Source of the DNA: Candidatus Peregrinibacteria bacterium RIFOXYA2_FULL_41_18 | GTDB taxonomy: Bacteria; Patescibacteriota; Gracilibacteria; UBA1369; UBA12470 | Length of the DNA stretch: 40,000 nt | Assembly: GCA_001788795.1 (NCBI GenBank) | Contig: MFXH01000010.1 | Span: 9,328 to 49,327, forward strand | Direction: 5' to 3' | Part shown: positions 3,070 to 28,619 of the stretch, piece after piece | Layout of the letters: each line of letters begins with the position of its first letter | Numbering within the stretch: the first letter of the stretch is position 1 | Made by a program: the position numbers and the translations under genes | Notes under the pieces: model-generated | Databases searched by the model: none | What the model was told of the DNA's origin: nothing | The model's input: only the letters and a program-made list of their open reading frames with translations

Positions 3070-3723
3070 TTAAAAGCCAGTCGCCTTAAAAGCTGCGGAT
3101 TGCACTTTCGCTCGCTCTTCACGCAACCGAGGGGCATGAACATATCTCTCAAAATTCGAAATGAAATCACTAAGACGTCTCGACTCCGGAGTAGGATCTG
3201 CATGAGTAATTTGATACCCTCTTAAATTATCGCTTCCTGCAGGTAAAACTGAGAATTGGCTAAAGAGTTTCATATCCCTATAGATAGCGGCAAGGTTATC
3301 CGTTCCAATCTGAACCAACTCATCATTTAGAATCCTCAGATAATGTAGTTGTTGGTCTGAACCTTTCCAATAGATTCGCAATCCATCATTAGATCCAAGT
3401 GGAGGCGTTGTAATATACATAGTGCCAGGATTTGCTTTTTCAAATGCATCCCAAAGTACAACTCTTGCATCTGAGTATGTACCATCATGCTTTGGAATTT
3501 TATTGTCACCATATCCTTCTAACGCTTCCTCCATTGCCAAAAAGACAGCCTTATCTCCATCCTGAGAAATAGTTTCTCCTTTGCTTCGCATTAAATCCAA
3601 TATTTTACCTACGATTTCTCTCCTAGCCTTCTCATCGCTTTCATGAGTATCAGGAGTCTTTAATGAGTCATCAGTGCTATTCATAGAATGCAAGGTTGAC
3701 GAATAAATTTCGCTTCGGGACAA
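3070..3723 (-). CDS. Hypothetical protein (217 aa from a TTG start, or 204 aa from the ATG at 3684)
   Basis: Long ORF with no recognisable motif. It lies 11 nt downstream of the 67-aa ORF on the same strand. The start is uncertain. Confidence 0.55.
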   Translation of the reverse strand: MSRSEIYSSTLHSMNSTDDSLKTPDTHESDEKARREIVGKILDLMRSKGETISQDGDKAVFLAMEEALEGYGDNKIPKHDGTYSDARVVLWDAFEKANPGTMYITTPPLGSNDGLRIYWKGSDQQLHYLRILNDELVQIGTDNLAAIYRDMKLFSQFSVLPAGSDNLRGYQITHADPTPESRRLSDFISNFERYVHAPRLREERAKVQSAAFKATGF

Positions 3724-3734
3724 GAACCTCGCTA

Positions 3735-3938
3735 CTACTCTTCTTCCCCGCCGCCATGTGGAATCATCACCATATCGCTCGACACAGCATGCAACGGATT
3801 GTAATCAATTGTATCGCCCTTCTGTCCGGTCGAATTAAGACCGAAAGCAAGAAGCCCTATCGTCAGACTTACAAGGAAAATCGATAGGACGATGATCGCA
3901 ATTTTTGCTCTGTGCGTGAGTGATTGGACGTATTCCAT
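3735..3938 (-). CDS. Small single-pass membrane protein (67 aa)
   Basis: One clear hydrophobic helix (IAIIVLSIFLVSLTIGLLAFGL). It is the first gene of a two-gene unit downstream of a divergent promoter region. Confidence 0.5.
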   Translation of the reverse strand: MEYVQSLTHRAKIAIIVLSIFLVSLTIGLLAFGLNSTGQKGDTIDYNPLHAVSSDMVMIPHGGGEEE

Positions 3939-4024
3939 AATTTTTGATTATGCTATATGATAAAACATCTCGACTTAAATGTCAAGCTATTGATGTATGC
4001 AAATGGCTTAAACAAGCGGTTTCT

Positions 4025-17479: not shown

Positions 17480-18640
17480 ATGCGTAAAAAATATTTCGTC
17501 ATTCAGTTGGTACTATTATCGTTTGTTATTGGCGCTTTTGGCTGTGCCGAAGAGACACAACAGGATCAAGTTGTTGTTCCTGACGTACTTGATGTTTCCG
17601 AACAACTTCCCGTACCGGAACTGACGAGTCTCGCATCCTATGAATTTCAGGACTCAACTCATCGACCCGAAATTTTATTTTATGAAAATAAACTTTATGT
17701 GCTTGTTGTTGATCACGATTTTCAACAAGATATTAGTATTAAACATCAGGGATATATTTATGACGTTTCCGATCCTCTGAGTATTGATTTCGACAACCCC
17801 GATGTGAATTTTGTCATTTCAAAAGAAACTGACGAATATGGAAGTCCTTCCGATCATCGCGTGGCAATCGTAAACGATGAGTTATGGGTTGTTTTTCAAT
17901 CATCTATAGTCGATGAGGCGAAGAGAGAGGAATGTGTGGGTGGACCTCTCGAACCTTGCGTAGAAAGCCAGCATTTGATGTTTACGAGATTCACTCTCGA
18001 TGGAGAAGAAATTTTGACTACGGAAATCGCCAGCACTACGGAATTCCCAGAAGATAATTATCCAGACATGTCCGTTGTTGCCAACGGAGATACGCTGCTT
18101 GTCAGTACAGGTACATCCGATCTGGGATTGAAAATAAGGGAAGTTGATTTGGATGGGGAGATTTTGAACACTTACGAATATCAAACTTCTACCGATGGAA
18201 TCCCCGGTAGCATCGGGAACAGTTTGTTCCGTGGAGAAGATGGTAATTTGCTTGTGTTTAGTGGCACTATGAATCAGACGAGTGTCACCGTTCTTGATGA
18301 GAATTTTGAAGCTGGGAATGCCTTGTTATTTGATCTTCCCGACGATGAAAATACTTTTCAGACCGGAGTTGATTATAAAGATGGTTATTATTATGTCGGA
18401 TACAGTGCTCGAGAAAAAGGTGATATCGCAATTGAAACAAATCCCCTCTCGCCTCGCATGATTATACTTAATCAGGATTTAGAAGTCGTGAAAACGATTT
18501 CGATTTCAGAAGAGGCCGGACATGGACACGTTCATCCTTCAATCGTCTTTGTGGAAGATTATTTATTCTACGCGTGGAGCAAGTCCGAGAACGGAAAACC
18601 TCAGGTGATTATAGAGATTTTTGAGGACGCAAACTCCTAA
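17480..18640 (+). CDS. Lipoprotein, hypothetical (probable beta-rich fold)
   Basis: Signal peptide with GAFGC, 386 aa, no recognised family. Its 3' end overlaps ilvC by 32 nt in convergent orientation. Confidence 0.6.
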   Translation: MRKKYFVIQLVLLSFVIGAFGCAEETQQDQVVVPDVLDVSEQLPVPELTSLASYEFQDSTHRPEILFYENKLYVLVVDHDFQQDISIKHQGYIYDVSDPLSIDFDNPDVNFVISKETDEYGSPSDHRVAIVNDELWVVFQSSIVDEAKREECVGGPLEPCVESQHLMFTRFTLDGEEILTTEIASTTEFPEDNYPDMSVVANGDTLLVSTGTSDLGLKIREVDLDGEILNTYEYQTSTDGIPGSIGNSLFRGEDGNLLVFSGTMNQTSVTVLDENFEAGNALLFDLPDDENTFQTGVDYKDGYYYVGYSAREKGDIAIETNPLSPRMIILNQDLEVVKTISISEEAGHGHVHPSIVFVEDYLFYAWSKSENGKPQVIIEIFEDANS

Positions 18641-19658
18641 CCGTCTTGCCGGCTTGCCACATCTCGGAGTCGCCAATTTCTTTCAGCTCTTTTTCAAGTT
18701 TCGCTCTATAGTCAGGCGCGCTATTTGCCTTGAGCACTATTTCGGTTTCGTGTCCGCTTGCTACGCTATCATATAGACGCGTGAAGACCGGTTCGACAGC
18801 TTTTCTGAATTCATGTCGCCAATCCAGAGCGCCTCTTTGGGCTGTTGTGGAGCAGTTTGCGAACATCCACTCCATGCCGTTTTGATCGATAAGCGGAATA
18901 AGGCTTCTTGTAGCCTCTTCCACTGTTTCGTTGAACGCTTCGCTCGGCGTGTGTCCGCGTTTGCGAAGTTCCGCATATTGCGCCTCCATAATACCGGCGA
19001 TAGCACCCATAAGAACTCCCCTTTCTCCGGTCAGGTCGCTGTAAACTTCCTTCTGAAAAGTTGTCTCGAACATAAATCCCGAACCTATGCCCATGCCTAG
19101 CGCGAGTGTGCGTTCTTTCGCTCGACCTGTTGCATCTTGAAAAACCGCGAAACTCGCATTAACACCTTTCCCTTCGAGAAATAATTTCCTGACAAAAGCT
19201 CCCGGACCTTTTGGCGCAACCATTATTACATCTATTCCTTCCGGTGGGATAACGCCTGTCTGTTCCTTATAAACGATTGAGAAGCCGTGTGAAAAATAAA
19301 GTGCTTTCCCTTTTGTAAGATATTTTTTTATTGTTGGCCAAAGTTCTTTTTGACCTGCGTCCGAAAGGAGATAACAGAGTATCGTACCTTTTTCGCAAGC
19401 TTCTTCTATCGGAAAAAGCGTCTTGCCTTCGATCCAGCCGTCTTTTACGGCTTTGTCCCATGAATCGCCACCTTCTCTCTGACCGATTATTACATTAAAT
19501 CCATTGTCTCTTAGATTTAGTGCTTGACCCGGACCTTGTACTCCGTAGCCGATCACTGCGATAGTTTCATCTTTTAGAGTTTCGAGTGCTTTTTCCATTG
19601 GGAACTCTTCGCGCGTGACAACAGGTTCGATAGTGCCGCCGAAATTCATTTGAGGCAT
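18609..19658 (-). CDS. ilvC: Ketol-acid reductoisomerase (class I)
   Basis: 349 aa with a GYGxQGxxxALNLRDxG Rossmann motif and a conserved C-terminal knotted domain. Confidence 0.95.
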   Translation of the reverse strand: MPQMNFGGTIEPVVTREEFPMEKALETLKDETIAVIGYGVQGPGQALNLRDNGFNVIIGQREGGDSWDKAVKDGWIEGKTLFPIEEACEKGTILCYLLSDAGQKELWPTIKKYLTKGKALYFSHGFSIVYKEQTGVIPPEGIDVIMVAPKGPGAFVRKLFLEGKGVNASFAVFQDATGRAKERTLALGMGIGSGFMFETTFQKEVYSDLTGERGVLMGAIAGIMEAQYAELRKRGHTPSEAFNETVEEATRSLIPLIDQNGMEWMFANCSTTAQRGALDWRHEFRKAVEPVFTRLYDSVASGHETEIVLKANSAPDYRAKLEKELKEIGDSEMWQAGKTVRSLRPQKSL

Positions 19659-19713
19659 GGGGGATAGATTAAAGGTTAGAGATAATAGATTAGAGATGGC
19701 GCAAATGAGCGTT

Positions 19714-20091
19714 TCACTTCCTTTGCGCTGTTGCTTCGATTTCGACTTTTACATCTTTTGGCAGGCGTGCGACTTGGACAGTGGCGCGTGCAGGAGGGTT
19801 CGACACGAAATAAGAACCGTAGATTTCGTTCACCGCCGCAAAATCGTTCATGTCAGCCAAAAAAATTGTCGTCTTAACGACATTCTCAAGAGTTGTTCCG
19901 GCAGCTTCCAGTACAGCTTTCAGATTTTCTAGAACCTGTGTCGTTTGAGCCTTGATATCGCCCTGTTCTAGCTCGCCGGTTGGTTTGAGAGGTATTTGAC
20001 CGGAACAGAAAACGAATCCGTTAACTGAGACTGCTTGTGAGTATGGCCCGATGGCTTTTGGAGCTTTGTCTGTTGAGATGATTTGTTTCAT
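19714..20091 (-). CDS. ridA: RidA/YjgF-family reactive enamine/imine deaminase
   Basis: 125 aa with [12 protein letters not shown]...GQIP...[19 protein letters not shown]. Its ATG overlaps the ilvN stop (ATGA). Confidence 0.9.
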
Positions 20092-20540
20092 AATGGAAGT
20101 GTTGTTATTCCGCTTCGTGAAATTTCAATGAGTCCGAGCGGTTTGGATTTTTCTATAAATAAGTCTACTTCATCCGGCGTGCCGATGAAACCTACAATTA
20201 TTTCGTCATTTGCCTTGTAAAGCTCTTTGCAGCGCGGAAGCTTGTCGAGCATACCTTCTTTAGATCTGAATTTTGCCAATAACATTTCGCTCATTATCGA
20301 TTTGTCCCGAGCGATCTCTACAACTTCTACGACCTCTATCAGTCTATCTATTTGCTTGATGATTTTTGCCGTTCTTTCTTCCGTGTCATCAATCGTTATC
20401 GCGAATCGCGACATATTAGGCTCGAGCGTCGGCCCGGCAGTGATGCCGACGATGTTGAAGCGCTTGCGCCTGAGGAGAGAGGTAACTCTATTCAGTACGC
20501 CCGGTTTGTCTTCCGATAATAATAAAATTGTACTTCTCAT
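20088..20540 (-). CDS. ilvN: Acetolactate synthase small (regulatory) subunit
   Basis: 150 aa with an N-terminal ACT domain ([20 protein letters not shown]). It lies 2 nt after ilvB. Confidence 0.88.
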
Positions 20541-20542
20541 AA

Positions 20543-22216
20543 TTATTTTCCGATTAAAGTATCTTTCAGCCCTTTTCCGGGGGCGACCATCGGGAAGACA
20601 TTGTCTTCCGGCTCAACCAAAAATTCGCAAATCACCGTGCCTTTCATATCGCGCGCGGCCTTGATTGTACTTGCAATATCCGAAGGCTTCTCACACCTCA
20701 AATGATTAAGTCCATAAGCTTGCGCTATAAGTGAAAAATCCGGACTTGTTATAGGCGTACCTTCGTAATTTTTATCATAAAATAATTCCTGCCATTGTCT
20801 GACCATTCCCAAAAATCCATTATTCATTATCGCGATTTTGATCTCGAGACCTTCTTGAACTATCGTCATCAATTCCTGAATATTCATCTGTATTCCACCG
20901 TCTCCGTTGATAAGCCAAATCTCTTCATTGGGACGCGCGAATCTTGCGCCTATGGCGGCAGGCAAACCGAAACCCATAGAGCCGAGTCCGCCCGAAGTAA
21001 GAAATTTATTCGACTCATCTTGCGGATAATACTGCGCTGTCCACATTTGATGCTGGCCGACATCCGTAACTATTATAGATTTTCCTTCTGTTATTTTGTG
21101 AAGTTCGGTTAGCATTTTCGGAACGGTAATTCTGTGCGTGTCTTTTGTCGAGAGCGGATAAGTGCGAGTCCAGCCTTCTATTTCCCCCACCCAGTCGTGG
21201 TGTTTTTTCTCCGGCAAAACCTCCAAGATTTGTTTGAGTACATCTTTTATATTTCCTACAACCGGCAGATAAGGCTTAACATTTTTCCCGATTTCCGCCG
21301 GATCTATGTCGATGTGGATTATCTTTGCGTTTTTTGCAAAAGTATCGAGACTCCCTGTTATTCTGTCATCGAAACGAGTACCGATTCCTATCACGAGATC
21401 GGCATTGTGAACCGCGAAATTCGCATAAGCCATTCCGTGCATACCGAGCATCCCATAAGAGAGTTCGTGACTTTCAGGGAAAGCGCCTTTACCCAATATC
21501 GTATGAACGACTGGGATATGACTTCTGACAGCCAATTCCCGCAACTCCTTCTCTGCGCGTGAAATGATCGCGCCATGTCCGCAGATGATTACCGGTTTCT
21601 GAGAGTTTTTTATTAAATTTACGACCTCTGTAACTGTCTTATCGTCTGTACCTGCTGGAATTTTGAAACCCGGAAGGTTAATTTTTTCAGAATAATTAAA
21701 TGAGTCCACCTGTTGCTTAAATACATTTGTCGGAATATCTATGTGGACCGGACCTGGACGACCATTTTTCGCTATATAAAAAGCCTCTTTCATAACTTGC
21801 GGAATATCGCGAGCGTCTTCTACGAAATAATTATGCTTGGTTATCGGAAGAGTTATCCCCAGAATATCCACCTCTTGAAAAGCGTCCGAACCGATCATAT
21901 CACCTCTCACCTGCCCAGTTATCGCAACCATCGGGATCGAATCCATATAGGCATCGGCTATACCTGTAACAAGATTTGTCGCACCCGGACCGGAAGTCGC
22001 AAGACAAACTCCAACCTTGCCACTCGCGCGAGCATATCCATCTGCAGCGAAAGCCGCGCCTTGCTCGTGTCTTACGAGAACATGATGAAGAGTCTTGTAA
22101 TCAGAAAAAGCATCGAAAAAAGGTATTACAGTTCCACCCGGATATCCGAACATGACGGATGTGCCTTCTGCAAGAAGGCTTTCGAGAACTATATGTGCGC
22201 CTGTGAGGGTAGTCAT
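20543..22216 (-). CDS. ilvB: Acetolactate synthase large subunit (ThDP-dependent)
   Basis: 557 aa with the ThDP motif GDGGIQMNIQEL...NN and an N-terminal GYPGG pyrimidine-binding domain. Confidence 0.95.
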   Translation of the reverse strand: MTTLTGAHIVLESLLAEGTSVMFGYPGGTVIPFFDAFSDYKTLHHVLVRHEQGAAFAADGYARASGKVGVCLATSGPGATNLVTGIADAYMDSIPMVAITGQVRGDMIGSDAFQEVDILGITLPITKHNYFVEDARDIPQVMKEAFYIAKNGRPGPVHIDIPTNVFKQQVDSFNYSEKINLPGFKIPAGTDDKTVTEVVNLIKNSQKPVIICGHGAIISRAEKELRELAVRSHIPVVHTILGKGAFPESHELSYGMLGMHGMAYANFAVHNADLVIGIGTRFDDRITGSLDTFAKNAKIIHIDIDPAEIGKNVKPYLPVVGNIKDVLKQILEVLPEKKHHDWVGEIEGWTRTYPLSTKDTHRITVPKMLTELHKITEGKSIIVTDVGQHQMWTAQYYPQDESNKFLTSGGLGSMGFGLPAAIGARFARPNEEIWLINGDGGIQMNIQELMTIVQEGLEIKIAIMNNGFLGMVRQWQELFYDKNYEGTPITSPDFSLIAQAYGLNHLRCEKPSDIASTIKAARDMKGTVICEFLVEPEDNVFPMVAPGKGLKDTLIGK

Positions 22217-22226
22217 AAACTTGTAA

Positions 22227-23930
22227 CTAGTAACTTGTAGTTTTTTGAGATGAGTGATCCTTACGGAAACGTTCCAAGACCGGTGTCGTTTTTCGTCTTG
22301 GAATTTTGATATTTTTTAATCTTTTTTTAATTTCGGTTGCGGTCAATCGTACATTCAATCGACGAGCCGGAATATCTATTTCGATAATATCTCCATCTTT
22401 TATTGCGCCGATTGCTCCACCGTTATAAGCCTCAGGTTCGATATGCGCTATGCAAGGACCCGAAGTCCCACCTGAAAATCTACCATCTGTTATCAATGCA
22501 ACCCGTGTATATCCGGCACCTTTCAGCGCGTCTGTCGGCGTAAGCATTTCCGGCATTCCTGGGGCGCCTGCCGGACCCATGAAACTCAAAACGACTGTGT
22601 CACCCTCGTGAATTTTTTTATTCTTAATCGCCTTAAGAAGAGACTCTTCCGAAGTGAAAACTTTTGCCGGCCCAGTATGCGTCATCATTTCCTCACTTAC
22701 CGCCGTTTGTTTAATGACTGAACTATGCGCAATATTTCCTTTGAGGACAGCAATTCCGCCTTGCCTGAAATAAGGTTTACTGAGCGGTCTTATCACTTCG
22801 GAATCAAGCACTTTTCCAGATGATGCTATCTGTTTTATGGTCTTGCCGTTTATAGTCGGATTATCTTTTATGTAACTGATTATTCTATTCAAAACCGCAG
22901 GAATTCCACCGGCTCTTCCGAGGTCAGCCATCTCGTGATCTCCTGCCGGAATCAAGTGGCAAATGTTTGGTATTTTTTGCGCGATTTTATCAAAAAGATC
23001 TGTCTTTATTTCTATTCCGAGTTCGTGTGCGATTGCCGGAATATGCAAAACCGCATTCGTAGAACCGCCCATAGTCATATCGACCATAATCGCGTTTTCA
23101 AAAGCGGATCGAGTCATTATTTGAGAAGGTTTTATATCTTTTTTTACCAACTCTACAATCTTTCGCCCAGATTCGTAAGCCTGTTTTTTCTTCTCTTCGC
23201 TGATTGCCAAAGTCGTTGCGCAATTCGTAACCGACATGCCGAGAGTTTCTGTTACGCAAGCCATCGTGTTGGCTGTATAAAGTCCGACACAAGAACCAGA
23301 TTTACAATTTGAACATAGCTTCATTTGAGCTTCAGCATCTTCGAGGCGCATTTTCCCCGATGCAACCTGTCCAGCATAAGCGAAACCTTGAATCGGGTGA
23401 ATTTTTTTACCACAGGCCGGAAGCGAAGCGGACGGCCCATTATTATTAGCCTGATCGCGTAAGCGATCTCCTTTCAGCTCATAAGCCTTCATCGGCCCAC
23501 CCGTTAAAATCACTGCAGGCAAATCCAATCGTCCAGCCGCCATAAGCATACCCGGAGTTATCTTGTCGCAATTTGTCACACCAACCCATCCGTCGAGCGA
23601 ATGAGAAAGCATCATGATTTCTATATTGTCCGCAATATGGTCGCGCGAAGGAAGCGATAGACGCATCTCCGCATACATTGCAATTCCATCGCAAACTGCC
23701 GGCACACCCCATTCGAAAGGGACTCCTCCTGCATCGCGTATACCCTTCTTCACTTCTTCCGTAAGAGCGCGAAGATGAATATGCCCGGGGACAATATCGT
23801 TAAACGAGTTGGCGACTCCGATGAAAGGCTTTTTGAAATCGGCATCGCACAGACCGACTGAACGAAGCAATCCTCTATGAGGAAGCGTTGCAGGATTGTT
23901 TTTCAATATGTCGGATTTAAGATGATACAT
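22227..23930 (-). CDS. ilvD: Dihydroxy-acid dehydratase, carrying a roughly 19-20 aa in-frame insertion
   Basis: 567 aa with the IlvD/Edd motifs CDKITPGMLMAA, GGPM, CxxCxSGSC..TANTM and TDGRFSGGT. There are extra residues, DRLRDQANNNGPSASLPAC, between GGPM and the Fe-S cysteine motif. Confidence 0.95.
   Translation of the reverse strand: MYHLKSDILKNNPATLPHRGLLRSVGLCDADFKKPFIGVANSFNDIVPGHIHLRALTEEVKKGIRDAGGVPFEWGVPAVCDGIAMYAEMRLSLPSRDHIADNIEIMMLSHSLDGWVGVTNCDKITPGMLMAAGRLDLPAVILTGGPMKAYELKGDRLRDQANNNGPSASLPACGKKIHPIQGFAYAGQVASGKMRLEDAEAQMKLCSNCKSGSCVGLYTANTMACVTETLGMSVTNCATTLAISEEKKKQAYESGRKIVELVKKDIKPSQIMTRSAFENAIMVDMTMGGSTNAVLHIPAIAHELGIEIKTDLFDKIAQKIPNICHLIPAGDHEMADLGRAGGIPAVLNRIISYIKDNPTINGKTIKQIASSGKVLDSEVIRPLSKPYFRQGGIAVLKGNIAHSSVIKQTAVSEEMMTHTGPAKVFTSEESLLKAIKNKKIHEGDTVVLSFMGPAGAPGMPEMLTPTDALKGAGYTRVALITDGRFSGGTSGPCIAHIEPEAYNGGAIGAIKDGDIIEIDIPARRLNVRLTATEIKKRLKNIKIPRRKTTPVLERFRKDHSSQKTTSY
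23410..23473 (+). repeat. Two-hairpin element, copy B, in frame inside ilvD
   Basis: The first 31 nt match copy A at 30 of 31 positions. Hairpin 2 is GATCGC-gtaa-GCGATC, against GATTGC/GCAATC in copy A. Both copies end in atctcctt. Confidence 0.8.
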
Positions 23931-24014: not shown

Positions 24015-25865
24015 CTAGCGCTGTTTATAATATAACATATTGTATCCGCGTTCGAACGCTTCTATCGAGGCAACAATAATATCCGGAGAAGTTGCAGAGG
24101 CAATAACCTCCGTTCCGTCTTTTGATTTAACCCCCATCCTCACCTCAACGACGGCGTCAGTACCTTTCGTTTTGATTTCGACGTTGAATGAAGTAAGCCA
24201 ACACTCAAGTTTATCTTTTTTCTGTATAGCTTTTCTTGCAGCCTTGATAATCGCATCCACCGGACCGGCGCCTTCCGCTTCGGTTTTCAAGATCTCACCC
24301 AAATAAGATACGACAACTTTCGCATGAGGTTTCTTGTGGCGAGTAACCGATAGAGCATAATCTTTCACGAAGAAAACTTTTTCCTTGCCCGTGAATTCTT
24401 TCAGCACGTTCTCGACTATATATTGCAAGTCGGCCTTTCTCATTTTGGAGACTTTTTCGTGAAAAAGTTTCACTTCCTTGCATACTTCTTTCAAGTAATC
24501 ATCCGAAAGTACAAAATTAAATTCCGACTTAACTATTTCTTTCACTTTTGCAGGTTGAGGCGTTTTCTCCCACAAGACATTCTCCTTGCCTGCAACCGAT
24601 GAAGCGCGGATTTCGTAAACTTTGTTTTTCAAGTATTTATTTATATCTTCATCAGTAGGCTCCAATACAGGAGGGTCGGGCATGATTTGAGTTGCGGATT
24701 TCGGGTCTTTCAGTCCTACTCCTGTCGCGACACAAACGACTATATCATCCGGCTTTATTATTTTTCTTTTGAGAAGTTTTTTGAGACACGCAACCGGTAA
24801 GGCCGCAGAAGGTTCAACAAATATCGATTCCTTATGAGCCATATCTTTTTCAGCTTCAAGTATCGTTATATCATCGGCCGTTTCTCCGCATCCTTTTGAT
24901 TCTCTAAGCGCATTTAATGCCTTTATGTCATCAAGTGGCTCGCCTATTCCGACCGCAGAAGCGACAGAAGCGGGTTTATCGACGCGCACATATCTTTTTT
25001 TCTTCTCGTCAAAAGCTTTCACGATAGTTGGCACCGATTCCGGCTGTACCCCTATTATACGTGGCAATTTATCTGTAAATCCCATTTCATAAAACTCCTT
25101 AAACCCTTTCCATATCGCCGAAATATTCGTGCCACATCCCATCGGAACTATTACAACATCGGGAACCTTCCAAAATAGTTGTTCCACTATTTCGTAAGCG
25201 CAAGATTTCTGCCCTTCGGCTCTGAAAACATAATCTCCCGCCAAATAAAAATTATGTTTTTTCGCCATTCGTTCACATAATTTACAACAGTCCGCATATG
25301 TACCTCTGATCTGCAATATTCTCGCCCCGTATATAAGGCTCTGCGCAAGTTTGCCGATAGGAGTTCCATCAGGCACAAGCACATAACAAGGCATGTCCGC
25401 TATCGCCGCATAAGCAGAAACCGAAGCCGCCATATTACCCGTCGAAGCGCAACAGACCGCTTTCGCTCCCAACTCTCTGGCTTTTGTAAGTTCCACTAGA
25501 GATCCCCTATCTTTGAATACACCTGTCGGATTTTCACCTTCGTTTTTTATGTAAAGCTTCTTGAGCCCCAGCTCTTTCCCAAGCCTATCGCATTTACGCA
25601 AAGGCGTTCCACCTTCACTAAGCGTAACAAGCAAGTTGAGATTTTTGAGAGGGTAAAATTCAAGATATTTCCGTGCTGAAACCGGTGCATTTCGGAGCGA
25701 ATAAAAGTTCAAGTGCGATTTCATATATTCGTAATCGTACTCGACATCAAGAGCGCCATTGCATTTCGGACATACTGTCGCAGACACCTCTTCTGTCGTA
25801 TATGCGCCACAATTGACGCACTTGAGACGATAACAGCTTGGATTTTCGCATTTTGTTTTTTTCAT
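24015..25865 (-). CDS. Threonine-synthase-like PLP enzyme fused to a C-terminal LeuA-type allosteric (LeuA_dimer-like) domain
   Basis: N-terminal Zn ribbon (CxxC...CPKC), then the ThrC motifs NPTGVFKDRGS, ASTGNMAASVSAYAA and GCGTNISAIWKGFKEF. Residues ~496-612 carry GAGPVDAIIKA...GTDAVVEVRMGV...SPDIIVASIEAFERGYN, which matches the regulatory domain of isopropylmalate and citramalate synthases. Confidence 0.85.
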   Translation of the reverse strand: MKKTKCENPSCYRLKCVNCGAYTTEEVSATVCPKCNGALDVEYDYEYMKSHLNFYSLRNAPVSARKYLEFYPLKNLNLLVTLSEGGTPLRKCDRLGKELGLKKLYIKNEGENPTGVFKDRGSLVELTKARELGAKAVCCASTGNMAASVSAYAAIADMPCYVLVPDGTPIGKLAQSLIYGARILQIRGTYADCCKLCERMAKKHNFYLAGDYVFRAEGQKSCAYEIVEQLFWKVPDVVIVPMGCGTNISAIWKGFKEFYEMGFTDKLPRIIGVQPESVPTIVKAFDEKKKRYVRVDKPASVASAVGIGEPLDDIKALNALRESKGCGETADDITILEAEKDMAHKESIFVEPSAALPVACLKKLLKRKIIKPDDIVVCVATGVGLKDPKSATQIMPDPPVLEPTDEDINKYLKNKVYEIRASSVAGKENVLWEKTPQPAKVKEIVKSEFNFVLSDDYLKEVCKEVKLFHEKVSKMRKADLQYIVENVLKEFTGKEKVFFVKDYALSVTRHKKPHAKVVVSYLGEILKTEAEGAGPVDAIIKAARKAIQKKDKLECWLTSFNVEIKTKGTDAVVEVRMGVKSKDGTEVIASATSPDIIVASIEAFERGYNMLYYKQR

Positions 25866-25891
25866 AAATTATTAATTTAATTGTTGATGAT

Positions 25892-25923
25892 AAAAAAAAT
25901 CCCGCTTTCTTCTTAGCGGGCTT
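25892..25923 (-). terminator. Attenuator terminator of the ilv leader
   Basis: The minus strand reads CCCGCT-aagaagaa-AGCGGG followed by A and 8 T. The T-run ends 26 nt before the thrC-like ATG. Confidence 0.75.
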
Positions 25924-25952
25924 ATTATTCTTTGCACGTGAACTCAAGCTCG

Positions 25953-26000
25953 CTAGTAGCGGGTGTTAATAATAATCCCAATAATTGATACATTCTTCAT
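25953..26000 (-). CDS. Ile-rich leader peptide MKNVSIIGIIINTRY (15 codons plus TAG)
   Basis: ATG AAG AAT GTA TCA ATT ATT GGG ATT ATT ATT AAC ACC CGC TAC TAG. Five of 15 codons are Ile (all ATT). The stop codon forms the first 3 nt of the antiterminator strand. Confidence 0.65.
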   Translation of the reverse strand: MKNVSIIGIIINTRY

Positions 26001-26030
26001 CACTTGCGAGTCGGTTTATTGAACGCTCTT

Positions 26031-26058
26031 ATTTTATTATGCATTTTTTTTAAGTCAA
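26031..26058 (-). promoter_or_regulatory. Putative ilv-operon promoter TTGACT-16-TAAAAT
   Basis: On the minus strand the -35 is at 26058..26053 and the -10 at 26036..26031. The predicted TSS is about 25 nt before the leader ATG. Confidence 0.5.
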
Positions 26059-26110
26059 ATCTTTTGTCACTTCTATGAATATTATTTCGCAATCTTATAT
26101 TCAACTTGTC

Positions 26111-26150
26111 GTGTCAATCGCTTGACACAGTTTCGTTTTCGTGCAATATT
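26111..26150 (+). promoter_or_regulatory. Promoter TTGACA-17-AATATT (TG-extended) with the overlapping inverted repeat GTGTCAA-tcgc-TTGACAC
   Basis: The -35 is at 26122..26127 and the -10 at 26145..26150, preceded by TGc. The 7-bp inverted-repeat arms at 26111..26128 include the -35. Confidence 0.5.
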
Positions 26151-26198
26151 CTTATCTTAATTAAGCTCTTAATTAAGCCTCTTAACCCAAACAAGTCT

Positions 26199-28619
26199 AT
26201 GAAAAGACTAGTATCTATTTTTGCCGGATTGGCAATGATGGTATCCGTTGCGGTACCGCAAGCATTCGCGTTAACACCTAACGCTTCCGCTTCATCAACA
26301 TCAGTATTGGTTGGTGAAACAATTACATTATCCGTATCAGCTACCGACTTGGCAGCGGAAACGGATGAAGCTTCGGCTATGATATATTGGGGTGATAGCA
26401 CTACGACTTCAATATTGAAATCCGAATGTTCTGTCGATACATCAACCGCATCTGCATCGTGCGTATCGGCATCTCATTCTTATGCAAGCGCCGATACTTA
26501 TACCGTTACGATCTACGTATATGAGTATGATGCCGATCTTGGCTCTTCTCCAACTGGATATGAAACTACAACTGTTGCAGTTACTGTTACGGAACCTCTT
26601 CCTGACTTGGTTATGCAAACTGTCACTTACGATCCTTCTTATAGAGATGTTACTTATACTGTTGCAAATAAAGGATCTGCTAATATCGATTCGTCAACTG
26701 CAGGTTTGAATCAACTATCTGTTGTTTATACCGATGGGACAACAGAATCTCAGACTCATAACTGGACAGTACTTTCATCTTCACTAACTGCATTCTTAAC
26801 TGTCGGCAACAGTTCCGATATCCATTATTACCTTTCCGATTCGGGTAAGATTATTGATTCTATTACGGTTTGTGCGGATTCTATCAATGTCATGACTGGA
26901 TCTGAGGCTGTAATTGAAAGCGACGAGACAAACAACTGCTCAACTCTAGAATTCAGTTATCCTGATTTATTACCTACTGCAATAACAGTAGATGAATACG
27001 GATCTTTGTCTTATACGATTGAGAATCAAGGTGATGAAAACATTGCAACCGGCTCTGTTATTGAAGCGACTATAGACATCACTCCTCCTTCTTCAGCATC
27101 TTATACATTAACCGATGTACCTACGACTTCTTCCGATCTTGCATTCGCAGGACAAGGCGGTTCAAGCACGATTGCCACTGCAACACTTGCAAGTTATGGG
27201 ATTTATACTGTCGAAGTTTGCGTAGATTCAACAGATCAAGCTGCAGAAAGCAATGAGGATAATAACTGCATAACGGCATTGGTCAATTATGCGGATCCGG
27301 CAGTATATTATTATGATCTTGGAGTAGACAATTTGACTTACAATTATGTTTTTGGCGATGATTATTATTACATCGGTTATACGGTTTCAAATCTTGGGAC
27401 TTTGGACATAGATACTTCAGTTTATGATGGAGCTAACATTTGTACTATAAATTACCTTGATGGCAGTTCCAGATCTGTTTCTTACTCTTGGCAATACTCC
27501 TCTTTAACGGAATTTTTGACTGCTGGAGGAGTGTCTTCAGATTTTTCATTCTCTTTGAGCGGTGAAGATGTTTCTACAATTGATTCGGTCACGATCTGTG
27601 CAGATGGTTCATACATCCTTGCAGAAAGCGATGAAGACAACAACTGCAACAATATACAAATCGCTTCTGATGAAGAAGAAACTCCTCAATCTACTTTCAC
27701 AGTAGAAGCAGGATCAGATCAATCTGTAACTCTTGGTACAATTGTAACTGTTAGCGCGCTTGCAACAAATCTTGATGCTTCCGCTACCGGCATTACTGCA
27801 AATATCAACTGGAACGATGGTACCCTGACTCATGTTATAGGATCTTTCGATGATGCATCAGGTGTATATCTTATAGACAATCACGAATATACGGCTGCAG
27901 GTACTTACACTGTAACTGTCGAGGCTACTCAGTATAATAACGATTCAGTCGAAATAAGCACCGTATCTGATAGTTTGACTATTACTGTTACCGAAACTGC
28001 TTCTTCAGGCGGCGGATCAAGTGGTTCAAGCAGCACTCCTACTTATGGTGGAGGTGCAGGCTCAAGTAGCAGCACGTCGTCATCTTCAAGTACAACTTAT
28101 GGTGGCGGAGACCAAACTGAAACCGTAGAAGACGAACAAGATGTTATTGTCACTGAAGACAATACCACTACAGATGTTTGCGCAGAACTTCCTTTCACTG
28201 ATGTAAGCCCTGAAGCATCTTACTATGATGCGATTTATCAGGCTTGGTGCGATGGAATCGTTCACGGAAGAACTGAAACTTTATTTGCACCGGAAGATGC
28301 GATTTTGAGAGGTGAAGTTGCCAAGGTTGTTGTAGGAGTATTCGGTTATTCAATCAATTCCGAATTGACTGAAACATCTTATAGCGATCTTGATGCAAGC
28401 GAACCTTTGGCTCCTTACATCCAATCGTTAACCGACGAAGGAATCCTTCAAGGTTATGAAAGCGATGGGACATTCAAGCTCGATCAGGCAATAACCGTTT
28501 CTGAAGTTGACTCTATCTTATCAAGACTTGGAGTCACCGACAGTATTACTGAATACAGCGCAGGCGGATATGTTACAAGAGGCAAGTTTATGGAGTTCAT
28601 TCTTCAATACCTCTATTAA
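26199..28619 (+). CDS. Large secreted surface protein: PKD-like and CARDB repeats, Ser/Gly linker, C-terminal SLH domains
   Basis: I moved the start to the ATG at 26199 (MKRLVSIFAGLAMMVSVAVPQAFA signal peptide). It has repeated PDL...ESDETNNC / ESNEDNNC / ESDEDNNC CARDB endings. The C-terminal SLH motif is FTDVSPEASYYDAIYQAW...FAPEDAILRGEVAKVV. Confidence 0.85.
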   Translation: MKRLVSIFAGLAMMVSVAVPQAFALTPNASASSTSVLVGETITLSVSATDLAAETDEASAMIYWGDSTTTSILKSECSVDTSTASASCVSASHSYASADTYTVTIYVYEYDADLGSSPTGYETTTVAVTVTEPLPDLVMQTVTYDPSYRDVTYTVANKGSANIDSSTAGLNQLSVVYTDGTTESQTHNWTVLSSSLTAFLTVGNSSDIHYYLSDSGKIIDSITVCADSINVMTGSEAVIESDETNNCSTLEFSYPDLLPTAITVDEYGSLSYTIENQGDENIATGSVIEATIDITPPSSASYTLTDVPTTSSDLAFAGQGGSSTIATATLASYGIYTVEVCVDSTDQAAESNEDNNCITALVNYADPAVYYYDLGVDNLTYNYVFGDDYYYIGYTVSNLGTLDIDTSVYDGANICTINYLDGSSRSVSYSWQYSSLTEFLTAGGVSSDFSFSLSGEDVSTIDSVTICADGSYILAESDEDNNCNNIQIASDEEETPQSTFTVEAGSDQSVTLGTIVTVSALATNLDASATGITANINWNDGTLTHVIGSFDDASGVYLIDNHEYTAAGTYTVTVEATQYNNDSVEISTVSDSLTITVTETASSGGGSSGSSSTPTYGGGAGSSSSTSSSSSTTYGGGDQTETVEDEQDVIVTEDNTTTDVCAELPFTDVSPEASYYDAIYQAWCDGIVHGRTETLFAPEDAILRGEVAKVVVGVFGYSINSELTETSYSDLDASEPLAPYIQSLTDEGILQGYESDGTFKLDQAITVSEVDSILSRLGVTDSITEYSAGGYVTRGKFMEFILQYLY

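Follow-up and report, generated by a model that had tools for sequence, protein, structure and literature searches.

Can an operon for the biosynthesis of branched-chain amino acids be controlled by a translated leader peptide in an uncultured bacterium belonging to the Candidate Phyla Radiation (CPR) that makes next to no use of Shine-Dalgarno (SD) signals? This question is raised by a stretch of 40,000 nucleotides (nt) of Candidatus Peregrinibacteria bacterium RIFOXYA2_FULL_41_18 (contig MFXH01000010.1), in the following called the window. By its homologues, the window is assigned to Candidatus Peregrinibacteria/Peribacteria. On its minus strand, a short leader region (25892..26058) precedes a threonine synthase-like (ThrC-like) gene and the genes ilvD, ilvB, ilvN, ridA, and ilvC. 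A sequence-only reading had proposed a transcription attenuator at this position. The evidence compiled below argues for the same interpretation: with a probability of about 0.85, the region is a ribosome-mediated leader-peptide transcription attenuator that would sense charged tRNA-Ile and control all six genes.

Sequence elements of the leader region

The coordinates of the elements are listed in Table 1. The TTGACT-16-TAAAAT promoter named in the sequence-only reading is present and is the best sigma-70-like match of the region, agreeing in 10 of 12 positions. The distance between its -10 box and the ATG of the leader open reading frame (ORF) is 30 nt, and a 5' untranslated region of about 23 nt without an SD sequence is predicted for the leader. 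The ORF consists of 15 codons and a stop (ATG AAG AAT GTA TCA ATT ATT GGG ATT ATT ATT AAC ACC CGC TAC TAG); an alternative GTG start is located one codon further upstream at 26003. The encoded peptide MKNVSIIGIIINTRY contains the five Ile residues that had been described, and the composition of its run is 5 Ile, 1 Val, and 0 Leu. Across the genes of the window, Ile accounts for 7.6% of the codons. The statement that the genome lacks SD signals is also borne out for these genes (n = 28): their start regions are A/U-rich, and an SD-like 4-mer occurs at -20..-4 in only 1 of 28 cases, compared to 14% of random windows.

The leader ORF and the first structural gene are separated by an intrinsic terminator, which is recognized at the level of sequence patterns and was detected independently by a terminator scan. 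Upstream of the terminator, the stop codon opens a segment (segment 2) that pairs with segment 3 in 9 of 10 positions, the single exception being an A.C mismatch (UAGCGAGCUU x AAGCCCGCUA). The antiterminator takes up the whole 5' arm of the terminator; the 2:3 and 3:4 helices are therefore mutually exclusive. Segments 2, 3, and 4 had been identified correctly beforehand; missing from that three-segment description was segment 1, which lies within the last three sense codons and can form a helix with segment 4 or a weak one with segment 2. A segment-1 equivalent was also found in relatives. Judged by its sequence, the element thus has the four segments of a classical attenuator, in which segment 1 resembles segment 3 and segment 2 resembles segment 4.

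Alternative RNA structures and proposed mechanism

A comparison of the two alternative structures, which the sequence-only reading had suggested as a check, gave -13.1 kcal/mol for the antiterminator hairpin (-13.9 kcal/mol with flanks) and -9.5 kcal/mol for the terminator. Because the unconstrained fold of 25885-26030 paired the U-run with the 5' end, which was treated as an artefact, and because the z-score of the whole-region fold was no better than -2.19, element-wise and footprint-constrained folds were used. The ribosome was represented by a mask that extends from the A-site codon over approximately 15 nt in the 5' direction and 12-13 nt in the 3' direction, an assumed footprint of established size. 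The minimum-energy structure is the terminator if the mask is placed at the stop codon and the antiterminator if it is placed at Ile codon 11. Masking at Ile codon 9 leaves segment 1 free. Without a ribosome, the minimum-energy fold nests the 1:4 helix around the 2:3 helix, and the same nesting is seen in many relatives. The modelled geometry is consistent with the logic that had been put forward, according to which a ribosome at the stop codon would occlude the 5' strand of the antiterminator and a ribosome on the Ile codons would leave this strand free.

The following mechanism is proposed. Transcription would begin at the TTGACT-16-TAAAAT promoter, and the 15-codon leader would be translated without the help of an SD sequence. 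If Ile-tRNA is plentiful, the ribosome would run to the UAG and its footprint would hide segments 1 and 2. With segment 2 hidden, the helix of segments 3 and 4 (CCCGCU/AGCGGG, with U8 behind it) would form, and RNA polymerase would terminate at approximately 25892-25899. If Ile-tRNA is scarce, the ribosome would stall on the AUU run, best at codons 10-11, so that segment 1 would be covered and segment 2 would be free. The 2:3 helix would then form (-13 to -14 kcal/mol, compared to -9.5 kcal/mol for the terminator), segment 4 would stay unpaired, and readthrough would follow. A stalled ribosome has to cover segment 1 and yet leave segment 2 free; therefore, the last Ile codons should be the most effective ones. 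If the leader is not translated, segment 1 could pair with either segment 4 or segment 2, and termination should once more be favoured. In this way, segment 1 may enforce termination on untranslated leaders.

A further complementarity, noticed beforehand, involves the Ile codons themselves: GGGAUUAUUAUU (25979..25968) matches AAUAAUAAGCCC (25929..25918) in 11 of 12 positions. The match is real, and it was rejected as a conserved feature, as it is missing from most other leaders, among them that of the 93%-identical relative L081. Moreover, the extended antiterminator stem already employs AAUAAUAAG as its 3' strand. The AU-rich sequence has probably given rise to the complementarity as a by-product.

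Table 1. Elements of the leader region and genes of the putative operon, in window positions.
Element	Position	Strand	Sequence, energy, or basis
Sigma-70-like promoter	26031..26058	minus	TTGACT-16-TAAAAT; pattern scan
-35 box	26058..26053	minus	TTGACT
-10 box	26036..26031	minus	TAAAAT; 16-nt spacer
Leader ORF	25953..26000	minus	MKNVSIIGIIINTRY + UAG; ATG 26000, TAG 25955..25953; 15 codons
Regulatory codons 6-11	25968..25985	minus	AUU AUU GGG AUU AUU AUU; five AUU within six codons
Segment 1	25958..25963	minus	CCCGCU within codons 13-15 (ACC CGC UAC); exact copy of terminator 5' arm
Segment 2	25946..25955	minus	UAGCGAGCUU; antiterminator 5' strand, opens with the stop codon
Segment 3	25914..25923	minus	AAGCCCGCUA; antiterminator 3' strand, includes entire terminator 5' arm
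Antiterminator hairpin	25955..25914	minus	2:3 helix
Terminator hairpin	25901..25920	minus	CCCGCU-aagaagaa-AGCGGG; -9.5 kcal/mol
Terminator 5' arm	25920..25915	minus	CCCGCU, followed by 8-nt loop
Segment 4 (terminator 3' arm)	25906..25901	minus	AGCGGG, followed by A
U8 tract of intrinsic terminator	25892..25899	minus	26 nt before ThrC-like ATG
ThrC-family pyridoxal phosphate enzyme, 616 amino acids	24015..25865	minus	ATG 25865; Pfam PALP and C-terminal LeuA_dimer (PF08502)
ilvD	22227-23930	minus	Pfam
ilvB (acetohydroxy-acid synthase large subunit)	20543-22216	minus	Pfam
ilvN (acetohydroxy-acid synthase small subunit)	20088-20540	minus	Pfam
ridA (RidA family)	19714-20091	minus	Pfam
ilvC	18609-19658	minus	Pfam

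Occurrence of the leader in related loci

In total, 80 genome and 80 metagenome loci encoding a protein with ThrC and LeuA domains were fetched. In the low-GC loci (Patescibacteria), an I/V/L-rich mini-ORF followed by a hairpin and a U-run was found repeatedly at a distance of 70-160 nt 5' of the gene. A conserved Ile/Val-rich mini-ORF with covarying stems, which the sequence-only reading had named as a feature to be sought in related genomes, was thereby identified in 22 further loci from Peregrinibacteria/Patescibacteria metagenome-assembled genomes and metagenomes. Together with the window, they constitute a set of 23 leaders. The layout is shared: promoter-like boxes, an I/V/L-rich mini-ORF, a hairpin with a U-run, and the orthologous gene downstream. 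A generic detector, which demanded an ORF of 8-40 codons with at least five I/L/V in seven residues and a perfect hairpin plus U-run within 90 nt, gave 28 matches in 2.05 Mb scanned. As 20 of these 28 are located directly 5' of the ThrC-like gene of the window or its relatives, the combination exceeds chance.

The leader peptides are MRKSIQIISIIINTRS in L081 (93% protein identity), MKFLRGTKLISIILILALS in L001 (78% identity), MNIRKNFYIVAQIIIL in L082, MKFSAKNIINLVIIITQ in L003, MNNSVVSIVGIVMIPPIGG in L021, and MNIVNLIIISIIIAT in L024. The leader of L056 starts with GTG, that of L064 with TTG, and that of L074 is interrupted by the contig end; the others are from L037, L039, L043, L046, L061, L062, L063, L065, L066, L072, L075, L077, and L078. 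Ile constitutes 33% of the residues across the set, compared to 7.2% in the downstream gene, and is dominant in every leader (I 110, L 45, V 32 of 331 residues). The codons AUU/AUC/AUA are used 77/21/12 times in the leaders and 432/253/240 times in the gene, which means that AUA is under-used in the leaders (12/110 versus 240/925, Fisher p = 2.5e-4). This preference for AUU and AUC is compatible with a leader that responds to the major tRNA-Ile.

Nearly all leader ORFs of the relatives have promoter-like boxes in front of them; the hexamers of L081 are identical to those of the window, and L001 has TTGACA-16-TAAAAT. In an alignment of the window with L081 and L001, the -35 and -10 boxes, TAGCGAG, CGCTAA, and AAGCGGG plus the U-run are invariant, and the N-terminal codons, the spacer, and the loop are variable. 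In seven loci (L037, L039, L046, L063, L065, L066, L077), the end of the -10 box is separated from the leader AUG by merely 6-8 nt. This suggests that these leaders are translated from a leaderless or near-leaderless mRNA. In L001, approximately 310 nt (3674-3982) lie between the attenuator terminator and the ThrC-like gene; they contain an ORF of about 55 codons that begins with ATGGATCCCGAA.

A second ORF of the window, MYQLLGLLLTPATSELEFTCKE (25925-25993, minus strand), overlaps the leader in the +1 frame. The AUU run, read as UUA, produces its Leu run, and its stop is located 4 nt 5' of the terminator arm. The start codon is absent in L081, and the ORF was rejected as probably due to chance. 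No leader was detected in the high-GC homologues from NC10/Methylomirabilota, an absence that is weakly supported, as the detector needs U-rich terminators.

Structural conservation and covariation

For a comparison of the RNA structures, the terminator was located independently in each leader, and the sequence between a point shortly 5' of the stop codon and the terminator loop was then folded. For every one of the 23 leaders, the minimum-energy structure joins the 5' arm of the terminator to a segment whose start lies at -6..+5 nt relative to the first stop-codon base. When the fold was begun exactly at the stop codon, the same pairing was obtained for 20 of the 23 leaders, as judged by reading of the output. 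None of the 23 leaders lacks a terminator; its energy averages -9.9 kcal/mol, and that of the antiterminator -14.1 kcal/mol. Compared to dinucleotide shuffles, the duplex of segments 2 and 3 has a mean z-score of -2.8, and p<=0.05 was reached in 19 of 23 leaders.

These stems differ in sequence between lineages. At least eight types were found, namely CCCGCU, CCCCUU, UCAACCU, GCCACC, CCUCUCUGG, CCUCCG, AACCGC, and AUCCGCC. For eight family representatives, duplexes of a segment with its own partner have a mean energy of -12.2 kcal/mol and cross-family duplexes one of -5.7 kcal/mol; none of 20000 permutations reached the observed mean. In the MAFFT alignment trimmed at segment 2 (A4), 68.6% of the cells are paired, compared to 55.5+-2.1% after shuffling (0/500). 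The corresponding values for the alignment refined by means of a covariance model (A5) are 75.9% and 57.7+-2.4% (0/500), and 8 of its 9 pairs show double-sided changes. The covariation score is 0.41; shuffles gave 0.17 (0/500), and slid controls did not exceed 0.24. Alignments A4 and A5 lean towards the structure, and the alignment-free cross-locus permutation is therefore also given as the more neutral evidence. Two further MAFFT alignments (A2 and A3, stop-17 to U-run) were out of structural register and were discarded. The covariance model found no other match at E<=1 in 357 kb on both strands. Taken at the level of sequence, the covariation supports an antiterminator that is mutually exclusive with the terminator.

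Objections and alternative explanations

Several observations weigh against an attenuator. The stem of the terminator has just 6 bp and its loop 8 nt, the antiterminator contains the A.C mismatch, the 1:2 hairpin of the window is weak (-3.5 kcal/mol), and the z-score of the whole-region fold is modest. In the static footprint model, a clean antiterminated state results solely from stalls at codons 10-11, and stalls at codons 6-9 leave segment 1 free. The alignment used for the pair counts was trimmed and fitted with the structure known. Not all relatives possess the leader: it is absent in L002 (70% identity) and L044, where the gene directly follows another gene, and L015, L028, L057, and L068, where ridA precedes the gene, lack the element as well. 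L054 has a T-box-like leader plus terminator (3644-3811) instead of a leader ORF. Finally, we know of no demonstration of transcription-translation coupling in CPR bacteria.

Could the product of the mini-ORF be a small hydrophobic peptide with a function of its own, for instance in the membrane or as a toxin, with the hairpin as its own terminator and the operon being served by readthrough or by another promoter? Each mini-ORF is indeed trailed by a terminator, and many of the relatives' peptides, e.g. MKKLALSLLIIVIIIL and MKRLILIISVLIIIL, resemble short hydrophobic helices whose N-terminus is basic. However, the peptides are not conserved beyond the I/V/L run, and neither MKNVSIIGIIINTRY of the window nor MNNSVVSIVGIVMIPPIGG of L021 is convincing as a transmembrane helix. 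A peptide function would also leave unexplained why the segment at the stop codon always complements and co-varies with the 5' arm of the terminator, why the element has a fixed place 5' of one biosynthetic gene, and why AUU and AUC are preferred. This explanation is therefore considered very improbable. Equally little weight is given to an RNA-only switch (riboswitch, T-box-like element, or protein-binding attenuator), which would operate without translation and next to which the ORF would be incidental. The T-box match in L054, 5' of the same gene, suggests that RNA-only sensing exists in the wider group, although it is weak (30.3 bits, E = 4.8e-5, gathering score 93). The idea that other leader-less relatives are T-box-controlled was abandoned, as L059, L069, and L070 gave no Rfam match upstream of the gene despite a common aGGUGGUACC motif; the upstream regions of these four loci could be divergent CPR T-boxes or something else. 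In the window, a search of the whole sequence at the Rfam gathering thresholds returned only a tRNA, and the T-box family (RF00230) had no match in the leader region even at E<=10. No conserved aptamer-like domain is seen, and a short, variable spacer separates segments 2 and 3; what is conserved are the ORF, its Ile run, and the position of the stop codon relative to segment 2.

It might also be that a translated attenuator does not report Ile in particular but the overall speed of translation or the three branched-chain amino acids together. This would be a refinement of the model and not a contradiction. It is suggested by the mixture of Ile, Val, and Leu codons in the leaders of relatives and by the fact that ilvB, ilvN, ilvC, and ilvD serve the synthesis of Val and Leu besides that of Ile. 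On the other hand, the run of the window is almost purely Ile, Ile dominates throughout the set, and many of the Leu CUC codons are accounted for by the segment-1 constraint AUCCUCUAG. A readout broader than Ile has only a slim chance of being the correct one, and an attenuator that responds to charged tRNA-Ile is the preferred interpretation.

The operon and the ThrC-LeuA fusion

The sequence-only reading had called the first gene thrC-like. This holds for its catalytic domain and has to be amended for the C-terminus. The protein scores 242.8 bits with TIGR00260 (thrC, cut-off 167.1) and matches threonine synthases of the PDB at E = 1e-74; furthermore, its N-terminus contains a Cys-rich motif that resembles a Zn-ribbon. 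By these domain assignments, the gene encodes a true ThrC-family catalytic domain that is fused to the allosteric/dimerisation domain of LeuA. The fusion is widespread in Peregrinibacteria and in NC10/Methylomirabilota, where it is always annotated as 'threonine synthase', and literature searches on it found nothing relevant.

The putative operon downstream of this gene spans 18609..23930 on the minus strand. All six genes have the same orientation, are separated by gaps of -4 to 84 nt, and are presumably co-transcribed. No ilvA is in sight in the ilvD-ilvB-ilvN-ridA-ilvC operon. As a hypothesis, the ThrC-LeuA fusion may make 2-oxobutanoate under feedback control by branched-chain amino acids, with RidA clearing the enamine.

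Two observations on the surroundings are added. Inside ridA and upstream of ilvC, a terminator-like hairpin with a U-run (TGTCGTTAAGACGACA ATTTTTTT) is located at 19867-19882 on the minus strand; it is weak and possibly due to chance. On the other side of the leader, a divergent gene (26199-28619, plus strand) encodes a large secreted surface protein in which CARDB and SLH domains are present. The promoter-like site of this gene, TTGACA-17-AATATT (26122..26150), is arranged back-to-back with the leader promoter, and both are housed in an intergenic region of 337 nt.

Implications for the Candidate Phyla Radiation

Searches of a paper library yielded no report of leader peptides or attenuation in Peregrinibacteria or in Patescibacteria/CPR. 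Most likely, the element is a classical attenuator in a lineage where none had been described. As a conserved and co-varying family in the CPR, it would extend a textbook mechanism to a very different branch of the Bacteria. If the mechanism holds, the lead ribosome would closely trail RNA polymerase in CPR bacteria, despite the SD-less genes. It would also follow that branched-chain amino acids are synthesized, and their synthesis regulated, in some Peregrinibacteria; for the first complete genomes of Peribacteria, most amino-acid biosynthesis has been described as missing (PMC4736985). A more far-reaching interpretation is tentative and rather doubtful: the leaders might form a lineage-wide attenuator family of Peregrinibacteria/CPR that is SD-less and in part leaderless, depends on tight coupling, and guards a ThrC-LeuA fusion that possibly replaces IlvA in the supply of 2-oxobutanoate. 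In practical terms, the element offers a handle for the annotation of the mini-ORFs and of the ThrC-LeuA-domain gene under their presumed control. The mechanism itself is unsurprising; the interest is moderate and lies in the lineage of the host, in translation that is SD-less and at times leaderless, and in the ThrC-LeuA-domain target.

Comparison with known systems

With a relaxed Rfam threshold (E<=10), the region 25700-26300 gave sub-threshold leader-like matches only. The best one is Trp_leader RF00513 over 25892..25986 (21.6 bits, gathering score 41), followed by Phe_leader RF01859 (17.8 bits, 55) and Thr_leader RF00506 (15.7 bits, 55). By these scores, the element falls outside the Rfam leader families. 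It would work like the Trp, Phe, and Thr leaders, whose architecture it shares, and like the ilv, trp, and his attenuators of enterobacteria.

The closest functional parallel is offered by the enterobacterial attenuators of ilvGMEDA (ilvL) and ilvBN (ivbL). In these, too, a short ORF close to the promoter carries runs of Ile, Val, or Leu codons, and alternative antiterminator and terminator hairpins are followed by a U-run; the genes under control include those for acetohydroxy-acid synthase and dihydroxy-acid dehydratase. The peptide of ilvL contains the motif ...VVVIIIPP..., which is resembled by ...IVGIVMIPPIGG in L021 and by ...VVVVSLIIPT in L077. No homology to the ilvL and ivbL leaders was found at the level of sequence or of Rfam. 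In contrast to them, the leader of the window is approximately half as long (15 codons), Ile-only, and devoid of an SD sequence, and several relatives appear leaderless. Here, the stop codon itself opens segment 2, the bacterium belongs to the CPR, and the first gene is a ThrC-LeuA-domain fusion instead of ilvG or ilvB. The trp attenuator (trpL) shares the four-segment logic of 1:2, 2:3, and 3:4 pairing; in both cases the regulatory codons are located shortly 5' of the stop, segment 1 lies over the end of the ORF, and segment 2 just after it. The differences are that the codons of the window specify Ile and not Trp, and that its 1:2 hairpin is very weak.

T-box leaders (RF00230), which precede ilv-leu and ileS in Firmicutes, likewise sense the charging of tRNA, switch between antiterminator and terminator, and control the same kind of genes. 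However, a T-box binds the uncharged tRNA directly and needs no translation, and the window is without T-box features. The replacement of a T-box by a leader peptide between lineages is a documented pattern (PMC2965389). With the T-box-like leader of L054, such an exchange at the same gene appears to have taken place here as well.

One attenuator outside the Proteobacteria is the Bacteroid-trp leader of Rfam. Leader-peptide attenuators are known mainly from Proteobacteria and Actinobacteria, and new cases in Firmicutes include the hisS/hisZ leader (Naville & Gautheret 2010, PMC2965389). The leaders of Actinobacteria, the hisS/hisZ leader of Firmicutes, and the Bacteroid-trp leader represent independent occurrences of the same mechanism in other phyla and were recognized by comparative genomics; the amino acid sensed and the operon are different from those proposed here. 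As far as tested, the sequence-level features that define leader-peptide attenuators in these systems were all found in the leader of the window, which is consistent with its assignment to this class.

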